From assembly GCF_988242995.1 (NCBI RefSeq), contig NZ_OZ547043.1: a stretch of 64,000 bases of DNA; one strand, given 5' to 3'. A program made the translations under genes and the position numbers. Shown piece by piece: positions 6,071 to 63,113 of this stretch. The notes under the pieces were generated by a model that was not told the DNA's origin, did not search any database, and was given only the letters and a program-made list of their open reading frames with translations. Each line of letters begins with the position of its first letter. Position 1 is the first letter of the stretch.

Positions 6071-9000
6071 TTAAAACCTTGATGGAGTAATGGTGTATTC
6101 GCCAGGAGAGTATATATCATTCAGCCAATCTTCATACTTTATACCAGAAGGATTCATATTATCAAAAACTGTATCACCTACTTTTATTGCTTCATGATGA
6201 CCATTAGTTGCTATATTTTTACCTATTCTATCACTCCATATATTGCCAAAGGCGCCTTGTTTATTTTTAGTTTCGAGTATGAGATGCTCACCATTTACCC
6301 CAGCTTGTTGCATTTTACTTTTTAACGCTGCGGCAAATTTATCGCATTGAAAAAGCTGTTTAAACTTATCACTTATTGTTGTTGCAAGATCCCTTGTTTT
6401 TGCGATATCGCAAATGGTTAATCCTAATGGATCAATATAACCAAGGGGATTATGAACATATGCATAATTGTTTATCCCGCCTCTCAGCCCTATCGGATCA
6501 CTCACCAGGTACATCCCGGTTTCCGGCTCGTAATACCGGAACCGGTTATAGCACAGCCCGGATTCCGCATCCTGCCACTGTCCTGCATACAGCAGGCCGG
6601 GGTCGGCTTCCGGGTCCAGCTCCCCACGCGGGTCCGGGTAGCCGGTGTCTGCGGGCAGGCTGAGTGCCAGCCCCCACAGGCTGGTCTGTCCCGGTCGCCA
6701 GACGGTTTTACCTTCACTGTTAAAGAGCATCAGCGGCCGGCCCGTCAGGTCGCTCACCGCATGATTCGTCCGCGTCACCCACTGCGGGGCCACGGACGGA
6801 TGCGCCTGCCGTACCCGGCTGCACTGCTGGCTTATCAGCTCAAAGCCGTTAAACACCAGGTGCCGCACACTGTACAGTTTATCATCGCGGTATTCCCGGA
6901 TTTCCGCAATACTGTCGCCATCCCACAGGTACGTAAAACGGATTTTCTTCCGGTCGCAGCGTTTCTCTGTTCGTCTGCCGCTGGCATCGTGGCGGTATTC
7001 CCACTGTTCACCCTGTGCGCTGCAATACCCGGTCAGCTGGTCCCGGCTGTCCCACCGGAACCGCTCTGTTTCCGGGCGGTAACCGTCACGGTGTCTGGTG
7101 CGGCTGACCATCCGGCCTGCGGCGTCATAGTCATACTGCGTGTTTCCGGCCTGTTTCAGCCGGTGGCCTCCGGCATACTGGTCAGTCTCTTCACTTATCC
7201 GGTGCCTGCCCGCAGACTGCGCCTTCAGGTAGCCGCAGCTGTCATAGCCATAAGTCTCATCGCCTTCGCCATAGCCCAGCCCGGTGCCTGAGGCTGTCAC
7301 CGCCGTGACCTGGCCGTTCCGGTCCAGCCGGTACTCCCGCCGTGTTTCCCGTCCGTAGTCTTCCCGGCTGGTGACAGCCGACACATTACCCGCGCTGTCG
7401 TAACGGTACTCCCGCACCAGTGAGGGGAGCAGCCCGCCCCATGTGGCTTCCGCCGGGAAAAATCCGGCGCGCTGGCTGACAGCCTGACCGGCTGCATTCC
7501 AGCCCTGCTCACAGGCAAAACCCCGGTTACTGTGCCGGAGCACTTCACGTCCTGCCTCATCACGGCTGAACGTCAGCGTCTCATCCCCCGGCAGGATAAC
7601 CTCCGTCAGTTCTCCGGCGGCGTTGTAGCGGTAGGTGGTTTTCAGCAGGGATTCACCGGGGTGTCTGTCGCGTTCATCTTCCGGTGGCAGGATACAGCGG
7701 ATGACGGTGTGTTCATCGGGGTGGTGGTATTCAATGGCCCGTCGGCCCTGAGTGGTGACATTCACCCGGCCGCGTTCGTCATAGCCGGTGCGCTGTGATG
7801 TGCCGTCCGGGCTGAAGATACCCGTCAGCCTGCCGGATTTGTCATACGCATACTGCGTTTTGCCTTCCGGCGTGATGACTTCTGCCAGGCGGCCTGCGGC
7901 GTCCCGGCTGTAGAGGATAGTTTCCTCCAGGCCGTTGACCCTGGCGGTACACAGGCCATCGGCGTCATAGCGGTAACGCCAGACCACGCCGCCCCAGTCA
8001 CGCTCTTCCGTCACCCGGCCGCAGTTATCCAGAACATAAAGATATGACTCACCCTGCGGATTGATGACTTCTGTCAGTTGCAGCGTGTCTTTATCGTAGC
8101 GGTACTGCCAGCGGTGGCCTTCACCGTCCGTTCGCGCCACCGGCAAATCAAACGGGCCGTACTCCATTGTCCAGACAACGCCATTGCCGTCCGTCCAGGC
8201 CAGCAGGTTGCCGTGGCGGTCGTTGCGGAATCCTTCCGCGCCGGTTCCAGTGCGCTCAAGGCCGCTCAGTTTATGGTGCTGCTGCCACTGCAACCGCACT
8301 GACTGACCGCCGGGGCCGCGCATCTTCACCGGCAGGTCGTGACCACTGTATTTGGTGTGGTGTTCGCGGCCCATCACGTCGGTGAGTGTTTCCGGCCGGT
8401 TGTGGCGGTCGTACTCTATGCCCAGACGCCGTTCATCCTGGCGGAATATCCCCGACAGCAGCCCCTGAGCGGTGTATGCCAGCCGGGTCTCTTCGCCCTG
8501 TGGCGACACCTGACTTACCGGCAGGCCGCGTTCATCACACTGCTGTGTCCACGTCTGCCCGGCAGGGTCGGTGATGTTGCTGAGCAGGCCGCGCTCATCA
8601 TAGCGGTACAGCCACTCCGCGCCGTCTGCCGCCGTGTAACGGCTTAACTGACCGAGTGCGGCGTTGTCTTCAAATTTCTCCACCCGCCCGGCAGGGGAGT
8701 GGCGGGCCAGCAGGTGATGGAATTCATCCCATTCATACGTGGTGGTACTGCCGTCCGGCGCGTCTTCCCGCAGGATATTGCCGTCAGGATCATAGTAATA
8801 ACGGTGAATGCCCTTGCCGTCCGTCACGGTGGTGCAGCCGTCCCCATAGTCCAGCGTGGCGTTGTAATAGCCCTCCGCCCCGGTGACGGTCACGCACCGG
8901 CCCTGTGTATCGTAGGTGAAACGGCTCCACGTCTGGTCGTTATCGGACCAGCGGATGATCCGGTCCGCATCGTCGTACTCATAAAACAGGTGGTAGTCCA

Positions 9001-56187: not shown

Positions 56188-57090
56188 TCAGAAGCTATCA
56201 TTTAAACGATCTATGAATCGTGAGAAGACAAGGTTGTTCAACGAAGCCTTGTTATAGGAAATATAAAGTTTAACCGCAGGAAGTGGTCGTTCCAGTTTTA
56301 TCTCTTGTAACTTCAAAAAATCACGATGTAAATCGTACAGTTCGGTGGGCACAATGCCCAATAAGTCAGTAACAGAAATACTATTAATTATCGTCAACAA
56401 AGAAGAACTGCGAAATGAAATTTTACGGTTCATAAAACGTTCATCTATGTCCATTTGAATTTCGTCAATCCCTGCTGATTTAGATATCAACAAGGTGAAT
56501 TCTTCGGCGATAATTTGTTCATAGTTACTGGTATCGGTAATACGAGGATGTTTATTGCTACATATAAGAGAATTGCGAATAGTATGTAACGGCATGCAGA
56601 TGACAGAGCGGCTAATTACTGGTTGTAGTGTAATTGCCAGGTCAGTTTTGCGTTGAACCAACAGTTCTTCGGCATTTTCAGCTGAAAGCAGTATGTCATG
56701 GCATTCTATATCGATTGAAGTATCTTGTCTAAGACAGCGGATTAGCATGTTGTTATTAGTACAAGAAATAAGCTGAGGACCGTAGATAATAAAATTTTTC
56801 TTTAGCTCAGACTTATTAACAATATTGATCGTTTGTTCAAGGCCTCTGAGATTTTTCTCAAGATGATGATGCAGATTTAACCCTGTCGTAGTCGGCGCGA
56901 TACCTTTCCCTGAGCGAATGAATAACGGGTCATTAAATTGCGCACGTAAACGTTGTAACGACTGACTAACAGCAGAGGGCGTTATATATAATGATTCTGC
57001 TGCTTTGCTAATGCTGAGGTGTTGATAAATGCACTCAAATATGACCAGTAAATTCAGATCAAATTTTTTTAGGTCATAAAGATTCGCCAT
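56188..57090 (-). CDS. ybdO: LysR-family transcriptional regulator YbdO, 300 aa
   Basis: ORF track; start moved to MANLYDLKKFDLNLLVIFECIY; markedly AT-rich gene. Confidence 0.85.
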   Translation of the reverse strand: MANLYDLKKFDLNLLVIFECIYQHLSISKAAESLYITPSAVSQSLQRLRAQFNDPLFIRSGKGIAPTTTGLNLHHHLEKNLRGLEQTINIVNKSELKKNFIIYGPQLISCTNNNMLIRCLRQDTSIDIECHDILLSAENAEELLVQRKTDLAITLQPVISRSVICMPLHTIRNSLICSNKHPRITDTSNYEQIIAEEFTLLISKSAGIDEIQMDIDERFMNRKISFRSSSLLTIINSISVTDLLGIVPTELYDLHRDFLKLQEIKLERPLPAVKLYISYNKASLNNLVFSRFIDRLNDSF

Positions 57091-58979: not shown

Positions 58980-59149
58980 ATTTCCTTCGTCTTTCGCGCT
59001 ACCAACTCCGGCGCGAAATACTTCGGAAATTCACCTAATTCTTCGGGTGCTGCGGCACCCGATTTTCTTCCCCGCACCATGATGCAAGCTGCATCCAGGT
59101 AGCCGCAGAGGCCGCTTGCATGATGATGTTTAAAGCCCAGGAGATAAAC

Positions 59150-60715
59150 ATGCTCGACACAAATATGAAAACTCAACTCAAGGCTTACCTTGAGAAATTG
59201 ACCAAGCCTGTTGAGTTAATTGCCACGTTGGATGACAGCGCTAAATCGGCAGAAATCAAGGAACTGTTGGCTGAAATCGCAGAACTGTCAGACAAAGTCA
59301 CCTTTAAAGAAGATAACAGCTTGCCGGTGCGTAAGCCGTCTTTCCTGATCACTAACCCAGGTTCCAACCAGGGGCCACGTTTTGCAGGTTCCCCGCTGGG
59401 CCACGAGTTTACCTCGCTGGTACTGGCGTTGTTGTGGACCGGTGGTCATCCGTCGAAAGAAGCGCAGTCTCTGCTGGAGCAGATTCGCCATATTGACGGT
59501 GATTTTGAATTCGAAACCTATTACTCGCTCTCTTGCCACAACTGCCCGGATGTGGTGCAGGCGCTGAACCTGATGAGCGTACTGAACCCGCGCATCAAGC
59601 ACACTGCAATTGACGGCGGCACCTTCCAGAACGAAATCACCGATCGCAACGTGATGGGCGTTCCGGCAGTGTTCGTAAACGGGAAAGAGTTTGGTCAGGG
59701 TCGCATGACGTTGACTGAAATCGTCGCCAAAATTGATACTGGCGCGGAAAAACGTGCGGCAGAAGAGCTGAACAAGCGTGATGCTTATGACGTATTAATC
59801 GTCGGTTCCGGCCCGGCGGGTGCAGCGGCAGCAATTTACTCCGCACGTAAAGGTATCCGTACTGGTTTGATGGGCGAACGTTTTGGTGGTCAGATCCTCG
59901 ATACCGTTGATATCGAAAACTACATTTCTGTACCGAAGACCGAAGGCCAGAAACTGGCAGGTGCGCTGAAAGTTCACGTTGATGAATACGACGTTGATGT
60001 GATCGACAGCCAGAGCGCCAGCAAACTGATCCCGGCAGCGGTTGAAGGTGGCCTGCATCAGATTGAAACAGCTTCTGGCGCGGTACTGAAAGCACGCAGC
60101 ATTATTGTGGCGACCGGTGCAAAATGGCGCAACATGAACGTTCCGGGCGAAGATCAGTATCGCACCAAAGGCGTGACCTACTGCCCGCACTGCGACGGCC
60201 CGCTGTTTAAAGGTAAACGCGTAGCGGTTATCGGCGGCGGTAACTCCGGCGTGGAAGCGGCAATTGACCTGGCGGGTATCGTTGAGCACGTAACGCTGCT
60301 GGAATTTGCGCCAGAAATGAAAGCCGACCAGGTTCTGCAGGACAAACTGCGCAGCCTGAAAAACGTCGACATTATTCTGAATGCGCAAACCACGGAAGTG
60401 AAAGGCGACGGTAGCAAAGTCGTAGGTCTGGAATATCGAGATCGTGTCAGCGGCGATATTCACAACATCGAACTGGCCGGTATTTTCGTGCAGATTGGTC
60501 TGCTGCCGAACACCAACTGGCTCGAAGGCGCAGTCGAACGTAACCGCATGGGCGAGATTATCATTGATGCGAAATGCGAAACCAACGTGAAAGGCGTGTT
60601 CGCAGCGGGTGACTGTACAACGGTTCCGTACAAGCAGATCATCATCGCCACTGGCGAAGGTGCGAAAGCCTCTCTGAGTGCTTTTGACTACCTGATTCGC
60701 ACCAAAACAGCATAA
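59150..60715 (+). CDS. ahpF: Alkyl hydroperoxide reductase flavoprotein subunit AhpF, 521 aa
   Basis: ORF track; start moved to [23 protein letters not shown] (ATG 59150, CAGGAG RBS). Confidence 0.97.
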
Positions 60716-60835: not shown

Positions 60836-61264
60836 TTAACGCACAACCAGCACCGGCAAATTGGCGTGGCGGATCACGCTCGAGGCGTTAGAACCCAACA
60901 GATGAGTTGAAATTGATGGGTTACGCGAACCAATCACTACTACATCTGCATCAAGTTCTTTCGCTAACTCGTTAACTTCATCCCGCACACTACCAAAACG
61001 GACATGTTGCTTAATGCGGGAAGGATCGATGGTGAAGTGGCTGACCATCGTTTGCAAACGTTCTTCTGCTTCATGTTGCAGATGCTCTTCAAAACGACGT
61101 ACATCAGCGGCAAAACGGTGCAGGCTCAGGCTGGCTGACCCCGGTAGTACGTGAAGTAGATGAATAACTCCGTCATCCTGGGCGAGGAATTCAGCGTGGC
61201 GAACCGCTTTGTCGCTCAATTCCATTTCGAAAACATCCACTGGCATGATGATTGTTTTGTACAT
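60836..61264 (-). CDS. uspG: Universal stress protein UspG (YbdQ), 142 aa
   Basis: ORF track; start moved to [21 protein letters not shown] (ATG 61264, AAGGAGAGA RBS). Confidence 0.93.
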
Positions 61265-61387
61265 AAGCATTCTCTCCTTGTTTTTGCATGTATACATAAC
61301 AGCACATTATTGGTTATGAATCTATGATTTGCGAGGCTGATTTGATCTGAATTTGCTATTGAGCTGGAAAATAAATAAAACCAGGCG

Positions 61388-61477
61388 CTACCAGCGTTGT
61401 TCAAGGTATAGCACTGCAGCAACAATAATTGCGGCTATGAATATATAAAATGCAGTGATACCGAGAGCTTCGCTCAT
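61388..61477 (-). CDS. Hypothetical small hydrophobic protein, 29 aa (MSEALGITAFYIFIAAIIVAAVLYLEQRW)
   Basis: Short ORF below the track threshold, found by reading the uspG-rnk intergenic region; single predicted transmembrane helix; weak RBS. Speculative. Confidence 0.25.
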   Translation of the reverse strand: MSEALGITAFYIFIAAIIVAAVLYLEQRW

Positions 61478-61619
61478 ATGAGGTTCCGCAGATGAATAAC
61501 CAGTTCAGATTAGAATGCTGCGCTTAAGAGCAAAATGATAAATCTGGTTGATATTTGAGCGGAAAGAGGATGCGAGTGCATCCTCTGGGCAAAGCGAGTT
61601 ATCGCTTGTGCAGATGGGA

Positions 61620-62030
61620 TTAAAGCAGGTAGTCGCCAGCAGCTTCTGGCTGGTATTCGAGTTCCAGCACTTCAAGGTGGGTTGCAACGCCGCCCGGAAG
61701 TTCCCAGTGAATGGAATCGCCAACGCGCAGCCCCAGCAGTGCGGCACCTACCGGAGCCATAACGGAAAGCTGAGTATTGCTGTCGGTCATTTTTGCCGGA
61801 TACACCAGCGTGCGCACACGCACTTCGCCATCGCTAAGATTGCGGAATTTAACCCGGCTGTTCATTGTCACCACGTCGTGTGGCATCTCTTCTGGCGAAC
61901 ACATTTGGGCGCGATCCAACTCTGCGTTTAACGCGTCGGCGATTGGCAAACCAGCATAGGCTGGTTGCTCCAGCAGAATATCGATGCGTTCGGCATCCAG
62001 GTCGTTAATGATGATAGTTGGTCTGGACAT
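61620..62030 (-). CDS. rnk: Regulator of nucleoside diphosphate kinase Rnk (GreA/GreB-like), 136 aa
   Basis: ORF track [34 protein letters not shown]... Confidence 0.95.
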
Positions 62031-62259
62031 TTTTACTCCATGTCGTCGGTACTGCGAGTGTCGCAGATAAACATACCCAAAAGAAAACCCTCACCGTCAG
62101 GCGGCGAGGGTTTAACTCACATGATGATACTGACTGTTGCTCACTCTTTGAAGTGATTTGCGTCACATTCAGGGAATTCCTCAATGTAGCGCATTATGTA
62201 TAAATCTTAATCGTCATGGTTTATGGAAGACGAATTAGCGTGTTTTGTAAATCAGAGGA

Positions 62260-63066
62260 TTAATAACCTGCTTTATCAATCACAAAGGTTTTGCCACAGT
62301 TGCCTGGGTGTGGTTGTGGCAAGAATGAGTTGGCAGAAAGCGGAGCGTTGATGGCGTCAGCTTTGATCGAGATCTGAATTTCAGTCAAATACGCAGGGTT
62401 ACCCTGGCACGTTAGCTTAACTGCTTTCACGTTCTCTTTTCCCCAGCTTTTGGCAAAGGCGGCATCAAAGTCACGGCGGCTCACTGTTTTACCGTAGTTA
62501 TCCGCAAGGAATTTTCCGGCTTCGCTCTCTTTAATTTCTTGATTCAGGCGTACCATCGTGCCGAAGTATGCGTCTGGATCAAAACCAAAGCAGGCACCGT
62601 GTTTGGCATATTCGTAGCGTTCCAGGCAGGAACGTACGCCAGCTCCTGGCATGACTTCACTTAGTTTAGCTGCCGTTTCCAGTGATAACCCGGTTTCCGG
62701 CGATGAACACATCCGGCTGGCGCGTGCTTCTGGCAGATTCGGGATTGGGCGAGTAGCGCAACCGAAGCGCATCCAGCGGCGTTCATCAACACCACGGGCA
62801 GCAACCGATTTAGGCAATCCTGGCCATAGACCATGTACGGTCAGAAAATCAGCTTTGTTGGTCGTTTCGGTTTGCAGGCGACATTCATCTCGTTCGTTAC
62901 GATTTCGATCGTGTTGACTCTGGCAAAATCCGGTTTGCCAGGAGAGGGCCAGGACATAGCGATCAAAATCGCCATACTGTTTTGCCTGCAACGCCACGGC
63001 GTTGGCAGAAGAGAAGGGAAGCAGAGAAACCGCGAGCAACGCGGCGTTACGCCAGAATGCTTTCAT
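62260..63066 (-). CDS. rna: Periplasmic ribonuclease I (RNase I), 268 aa
   Basis: ORF track; start moved to MKAFWRNAALLAVSLLPFSSANA (signal peptide). Confidence 0.95.
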   Translation of the reverse strand: MKAFWRNAALLAVSLLPFSSANAVALQAKQYGDFDRYVLALSWQTGFCQSQHDRNRNERDECRLQTETTNKADFLTVHGLWPGLPKSVAARGVDERRWMRFGCATRPIPNLPEARASRMCSSPETGLSLETAAKLSEVMPGAGVRSCLERYEYAKHGACFGFDPDAYFGTMVRLNQEIKESEAGKFLADNYGKTVSRRDFDAAFAKSWGKENVKAVKLTCQGNPAYLTEIQISIKADAINAPLSANSFLPQPHPGNCGKTFVIDKAGY

Positions 63067-63113
63067 AATGGGTGTGGAACTCATACATACACTGAATACT
63101 ATCTATTAAATCA

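Follow-up and report, generated by a model that had tools for sequence, protein, structure and literature searches.

The 355-bp spacer between uspG and rnk in the 64-kb window (the whole stretch of DNA analysed here) is best explained overall as an ordinary form that the rnk-uspG interval takes in E. coli, the haplotype without ybdR, carrying the rnk terminator, the small membrane protein gene yldA and the uspG upstream region, a reading to which we assign a probability of about 85%. On the minus strand it has three functional elements, namely the hairpin of the rnk terminator, yldA with a Shine-Dalgarno-like site of its own, and the uspG upstream region (Table 1). None of this is new: the open reading frame (ORF) already has an annotation and a name, and any comparison of genomes shows that strains commonly differ in whether they have ybdR.

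Layout of the rnk-uspG interval

The window comes from E. coli. Its 1.4 kb around the spacer are 99.8% identical to strain 1105 and 99.4% identical to UTI89, and the window is 97.8% identical to IAI39. Compared with K-12, the flanking proteins are 100% (Rnk) and 97.9% (UspG) identical in amino acid sequence, the uspG coding DNA being 92.8% identical. A first-pass annotation, made from the letters alone, had placed uspG and rnk ~355 bp apart, stated that K-12 has ybdR (~1.2 kb) between them, and called ybdR absent. All three statements hold: the spacer measures 355 bp, K-12 b0608 lies at this place and is 1239 bp long, and tblastn with K-12 YbdR as the query finds no YbdR-like sequence anywhere in the 64-kb window.

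Table 1 Features of the window around the rnk-uspG spacer, in order of position.
Feature	Position	Strand	Remarks
ahpF	59120-60715	+	
uspG, universal stress protein G, 142 aa	60836-61264	-	Low-coordinate flank of the variable segment; uspG annotation in the closest genome
uspG-rnk spacer	61265-61619		355 bp
uspG upstream region	61265-61387	-	123 bp, yldA stop to uspG start; presumed to hold the uspG promoter of the short haplotype
Haplotype-specific segment	61283-61558		276 bp; stands in for the K-12 1611-bp segment
yldA, small membrane protein YldA	61388-61477	-	29 codons
GGAA, Shine-Dalgarno-like purine run	61484-61487	-	7-10 nt 5' of the yldA ATG; read from sequence
rnk intrinsic-terminator-like hairpin	61565-61586	-	Folding and conservation
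Second, smaller hairpin	61589-61611	-	Directly 3' of the rnk stop codon; minimum-free-energy structure
rnk, nucleoside diphosphate kinase regulator, 136 aa	61620-62030	-	High-coordinate flank of the variable segment
rna	62260-63084	-	
citT	from 63180	-	

Two other places nearby also differ from K-12. The citR gene (56191-57090, minus strand) is a strongly divergent allele, with 64-80% nucleotide and 89% amino acid identity to K-12 citR, and lies beside dsbG and ahpC, which are 99-100% identical to K-12; the divergent citR is a second haplotype replacement, less than 5 kb from the uspG-rnk spacer. The gap between ahpC and ahpF (window about 58999-59006) is without ~78 bp that K-12 carries, probably a small intergenic repeat element of one strain only. 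Separately, a 300-kb record labelled E. coli MSB1_9D (NZ_LR890350.1) has an rnk only 81.9% identical to that of the window, which suggests a replicon or contig of another genus filed as E. coli.

Comparison with the K-12 locus

By blastn and by global alignment, homology to K-12 breaks off at 61282, shortly beyond the uspG start codon, and returns at 61559, at the base of the rnk terminator, so that the breakpoints fall at 61282/61283 and 61558/61559. Between them, the 276 bp of the window and the 1611 bp of K-12 are mutually unalignable; the K-12 segment holds the uspG-ybdR intergenic region, ybdR and a K-12-type yldA. The first-pass annotation had described a ybdR deletion with endpoints that could be found in K-12 coordinates. 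The alignment does not bear this out: it gives no colinear clean endpoints, and instead two unalignable segments with different yldA alleles.

The DNA upstream of uspG falls within this replacement. It does not align to K-12 past 61282, and past the first ~18 bp the two haplotypes are unrelated here, K-12 having the uspG-ybdR divergent promoter region. Over the 59 bp adjoining uspG, the window has 78-80% identity to the corresponding stretch of five Citrobacter loci without ybdR. A promoter role for the uspG upstream region is only inferred, because no consensus sigma-70 site was found in it. As the haplotypes differ in the DNA 5' of uspG, regulation of this gene could differ between strains.

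Divergence is also uneven within uspG itself, where nucleotides 261-360 (window about 60905-61004) are 83% identical to K-12, against 94-97% for the rest of the gene. Over these nucleotides the window groups with Escherichia sp. MOD1-EC7003 and K-12 with strain SCPM-O-B-8794; uspG is therefore a recombination mosaic.

Two haplotypes within E. coli

We surveyed 5426 complete E. coli genomes, 5422 of which match the locus. The short segment of the window is present in 1818 and the K-12 segment in 3605, always with a K-12-type yldA in the latter; since one hybrid genome has both segments, the two sets add up to exactly the 5422 locus-matching genomes. UTI89, IAI39 and 042, of phylogroups B2, F and D, have the short form, and K-12, H10407 and EDL933, of phylogroups A and E, have the ybdR form. 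The locus is thus almost certainly a common dimorphism and not a strain-specific deletion, and the absence of ybdR, which the first-pass annotation had treated as a deletion, belongs to a form that is common in E. coli and recurs in three other Escherichia lineages. The two yldA allele classes that accompany the forms in E. coli are only about half identical, and results obtained with K-12 may therefore not transfer to B2, D and F pathogens.

The hybrid genome is that of E. coli HH97 (NZ_CP116409, 2656-3323 of the extracted locus), which combines both haplotypes in the order K-12-type uspG, a 192-bp ybdR fragment, window-type sequence, and a K-12-type yldA whose stop codon is lost (46 aa). The ybdR fragment is 77% identical to K-12, with 35 of its 72 substitutions being changes to C and with many indels. 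HH97 could pass for an intermediate between the two forms, but we set it aside: given the indels and the excess of changes to C, it is probably an artefact that arose in assembling a mixed sample.

Age of the short form and probable direction of change

Outside E. coli, the same spacer is found in E. albertii, Escherichia sp. MOD1-EC7003 and strain SCPM-O-B-8794 at 85-96% identity (85-89% for E. albertii). The nearest relatives of the window yldA beyond Escherichia are Citrobacter alleles with ~74% nucleotide identity, a level in line with vertical descent; for K-12 yldA, even the best relative reaches only 69%. From the presence of the short spacer in other Escherichia lineages and from these allele relationships, parsimony makes the short form the older one and the K-12 form imported or selectively retained, and we consider the short form probably ancestral within Escherichia. 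K-12 YbdR shares 92-93% identity with the YbdR encoded at this locus in Salmonella and C. sedlakii, and the flanking Rnk and UspG stand at the same level; a re-import therefore explains the data no better than a long-standing polymorphism or losses of ybdR in several Escherichia lineages would.

The same interval varies across the family. Among 78 Enterobacteriaceae species loci that have both rnk and uspG, 21 carry yldA only, 10 carry ybdR only, 12 carry both genes and 34 carry neither, and more than one configuration occurs within Citrobacter, Enterobacter, Lelliottia, Leclercia and Kosakonia. With all four configurations found, several of them within single genera, the stretch from the rnk terminator to uspG is therefore a small site of repeated gain and loss.

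Based on the above data, we propose two old, mutually exclusive haplotypes, of which the short one is shared by E. albertii and the B2/D/F reference strains and the ybdR-bearing one is found in the A/E strains. The ybdR form would most likely have been brought into, or kept only in, the A/E part of the species by homologous replacement, for which the conserved rnk terminator on one side and uspG on the other could serve as anchors.

The alternative is that a deletion in the lineage of the window strain took ybdR from a K-12-like ancestor, leaving the spacer as its scar and the small ORF as a remnant or an accident. That ybdR is old at this locus, occupying the same place in K-12, Salmonella, C. 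sedlakii and many Enterobacter, would suit such an event, as would a stretch at 61314-61328 (GGTTATGAATCTATG) that agrees with ybdR, at the codons around GHEFM, in 13 of its 15 positions; by our own estimate, however, about one match of this kind is expected by chance in a comparison of such size. No other trace of ybdR is found in the spacer, neither by tblastn with YbdR (best E = 3.2) nor by blastn, which returns chance-level matches only. Moreover, both sides of the supposed scar fail to align with K-12, and its yldA is intact, conserved and unlike the K-12 allele; as yldA is present in both forms of the locus, it was therefore not left behind by a deletion. Since E. albertii and one third of E. 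coli have the same spacer, a recent deletion in the lineage of the window strain is largely refuted, and the scar explanation as a whole is improbable. An ancient loss of ybdR in the Escherichia ancestor is possible.

Identification of the small ORF as yldA

The 29-codon ORF of the spacer encodes MSEALGITAFYIFIAAIIVAAVLYLEQRW. This product is exactly WP_001287361.1, named small membrane protein YldA by RefSeq/PGAP, and is found at the same position in strain 1105, IAI39 and 042. It scores 59 bits, against a cutoff of 45, with the NCBIfam equivalog model for YldA (NF041476), covering model positions 1-29 of 29, and all 33 distinct YldA orthologs match this model as well. With the Pfam family PF23689 (YldA-like) it reaches 22.9 bits (E = 9e-5), narrowly missing the gathering score of 27; the allele is a divergent one in a family of only 29 residues.

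A yldA gene (b4734) is also present in K-12, where it lies on the rnk strand between ybdR and rnk and encodes MAEAFYILIGFLIMAAIIVMAVLYLENHS. The protein has been detected by chromosomal epitope tagging (PMC6001520, Table 1), in a study of the K-12 allele only, which is 52% identical to that of the window. The two alleles are alike in length (29 aa), in a common C-terminal core (AAIIV.AVLYLE) and in their place on the rnk strand ~140 nt 3' of rnk (142 nt past the rnk stop codon in the window and 137 nt in K-12). They differ in sequence, with 15 of 29 residues and 48 of 87 nucleotides identical, and the 80 nt 5' of the gene are also unlike. The neighbors differ too: in K-12, yldA and ybdR converge, with yldA only 3 bp away from the stop codon of ybdR, whereas in the window the next gene is uspG, on the same strand and 123 bp further on.

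Residues 4-25 of YldA are strongly hydrophobic, with a mean hydropathy of 2.5. The protein is predicted to be a 29-residue, single-pass inner-membrane protein with an acidic N-terminus, a 22-residue hydrophobic helix and a short tail. The N-terminus has the invariant E3, and the tail consists of an invariant glutamate followed by basic residues; from the positive-inside rule, and by analogy with the membrane protein YoaI, the tail would be cytoplasmic. There is no published account of YldA function, and the literature names the protein only in the study that detected it, in a catalogue of overlapping transcripts and in a table of transcriptome data.

Conservation and coding evidence

An ORF of this size proves little in itself, as 76 ORFs of at least 20 aa overlap the 4.5 kb examined and a lone 29-codon ORF is not beyond chance. 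We take it as real because it is conserved, not because an ORF exists. For this comparison, 80 loci around rnk were fetched, one genome per species, and all six-frame small ORFs were searched with an HMM built from the two yldA alleles; the species returned do not include E. fergusonii, E. marmotae and E. ruysiae. A 29-codon ATG ORF lies ~140 nt 3' of rnk on the same strand in 36 loci, with the window and K-12 counted; orthologs at the place of the window gene are given by 33 of the species loci and by K-12, 34 in all. The genera represented are Escherichia, Citrobacter, Enterobacter, Lelliottia, Leclercia, Phytobacter, Kosakonia and Pseudenterobacter. The synteny of yldA with rnk is kept in all 36 of 36, the window and K-12 again included.

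The pattern of substitution is that of a coding sequence. Variable sites number 19, 18 and 28 at codon positions 1, 2 and 3, respectively, and the mean pairwise dN/dS is 0.21 (0.17 for codons 15-29). Between E. albertii and the window, the 7 differences in 87 nt are all synonymous (dN = 0, dS = 0.46). The length is fixed at 29 codons, the start and stop codons are conserved, residues M1, E3, A21, V22, L25 and E26 are invariant, and a purine-rich g.gGg block occupies the GGAA position throughout the 36-locus alignment. Judged from these alignments, yldA is under purifying selection.

We have very little doubt that the ORF is yldA and a real gene. The possible 29-aa membrane peptide of the first-pass annotation thus stands as a genuine membrane-protein gene, on the strength of NF041476 and of conservation, but it is not a new one, having already been named yldA. 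A small ORF not conserved in related genomes would have spoken against that annotation; the loci from these eight genera show the opposite.

The probable rnk terminator and transcription signals

The GC hairpin reported by the first-pass annotation is present, its letters at 61566-61585 being GAGGATGCGAGTGCATCCTC. As RNA it reads AGAGGAUGC-ACUC-GCAUCCUCU followed by UUCCG, with a 9-bp stem, and it lies 34 nt past the rnk stop codon on the rnk strand, preceded by the smaller hairpin. The rnk 3' region folds at -24.2 kcal/mol, with z = -6.2 against shuffles. Across genera, the stem hardly varies in the 36-locus alignment, and the hairpin is common to the window and K-12, marking the point at which homology resumes. 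It is best read as the rnk terminator. A simple terminator scan misses it because its U-tract is short, and for the same reason some read-through into yldA appears plausible.

Transcription of yldA could accordingly proceed in one of two ways: RNA polymerase could run past the weak rnk terminator, or it could start at a promoter, as yet unmapped, within the 80 nt that separate this terminator from the yldA start codon. A scan for consensus promoters and terminators over 61100-61800 found none. No terminator was found 3' of yldA, where folding is no better than that of shuffled sequence, and the region 5' of yldA has no significant structure when compared with shuffles. The only real Rfam match lies on the other side of rnk, where RF01771 (Enterobacteria rnk leader) is found 5' of the gene at 62076-62184 on the minus strand, with a score of 124.9 bits (gathering score 50). 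Within the spacer, neither strand has a match above the gathering score of any Rfam family, and the single sub-threshold match, to a snoRNA, is implausible.

Possible function of YldA

The closest relative of YldA among small-protein families is YoaI. Window YldA scores 30 bits (E = 4e-7) with the YoaI model NF041475, under its cutoff of 45, and all 33 of the 33 distinct YldA sequences match this model below the cutoff (best E = 1.2e-8); no other small-protein family is matched by all 33. We treat YldA as a family of its own, related to YoaI but separate from it, and the hydrophobic composition common to both may account for part of the match.

YoaI, a membrane protein of 34 aa, binds EnvZ and activates it, and its invariant residues are S26, V27 and E31; the substitutions E31A and E31Q abolish EnvZ binding (PMC11429745). 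Both proteins have a single hydrophobic helix and a short C-terminal tail, and in a pairwise alignment E3, I7-T8, V22 and E26 of YldA align with E8, I12-T13, V27 and E31 of YoaI. The equivalents of the YoaI valine and glutamate, V22 and E26, are invariant in YldA, whereas that of the invariant Ser26 is the equally invariant A21. YldA is also five residues shorter at the N-terminus and is encoded at another locus, and the partner of YoaI is EnvZ, whereas no partner, regulator or phenotype is known for YldA. In K-12, yoaI abuts the convergent yeaK without a gap (yeaK ends at 8078 and yoaI at 8079 of the extracted yeaK-yoaI locus, 7575-8183). This mirrors the arrangement of ybdR and yldA in K-12, which may be a coincidence.

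YldA thus has the residue that YoaI needs for EnvZ binding, and this gives a testable lead on its function. By analogy, YldA would bind a larger membrane protein, for example a sensor kinase, through the tail glutamate E26, and so change the activity of its partner. We regard a YoaI-like function as a tentative proposal. A bolder version, which we consider doubtful, is that YldA is a YoaI paralog binding a sensor kinase or another membrane protein via E26, that the two allele classes differ in partner or in strength, and that the rnk-uspG interval is a recombination cassette re-tuning stress signalling between phylogroups. If true, this cassette would also swap the uspG upstream region between phylogroups.

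Two other roles for the conserved element appear less likely than a YoaI-like one. YldA might be the toxin of a type I toxin-antitoxin system, that is, a small hydrophobic membrane-damaging peptide checked by an antisense RNA, and its 29 residues with the hydropathy given above would suit this role. For a type I toxin, accumulation of the protein in growing cells is unusual. Chromosomally tagged K-12 YldA does accumulate in growing cells (PMC6001520), and although the K-12 yldA transcript overlaps that of the convergent ybdR, the pair being listed as an excludon (PMC12288877), the short haplotype has no convergent gene, and Rfam gives no match above a gathering score for either strand of its spacer. 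With a single-copy gene at a fixed syntenic place beside rnk in many genera, and with the signalling modulator YoaI as the nearest family, a toxin is quite improbable. Still less credible is that the conserved element is a long rnk 3' UTR, or a small RNA derived from it, in which the reading frame is incidental. Its constant position ~140 nt 3' of rnk on the same strand, behind a terminator whose short U-tract could leak, is compatible with such an RNA, but the substitutions are of the coding type, with third positions varying most, a low dN/dS, 29 fixed codons and conserved start and stop, the K-12 product has been detected as protein (PMC6001520), the RNA folds no better than shuffled sequence (z = -1.6 and +0.5), and Rfam gives no match above threshold in the spacer.

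Comparison with known presence/absence polymorphisms

As a normal ybdR-less haplotype, the spacer resembles the presence/absence polymorphisms of E. coli that are kept by recombination in the flanks. Here too, two mutually exclusive haplotypes sit between the same flanking genes, the split follows the major phylogroups in the six reference strains, and divergence is raised in one flank, uspG. The rnk-uspG unit differs from them in being very small, with one enzyme gene and one 29-codon gene, and in having neither mobility genes nor repeats. It differs also in that yldA and ybdR vary independently of each other across the family, in all four combinations.
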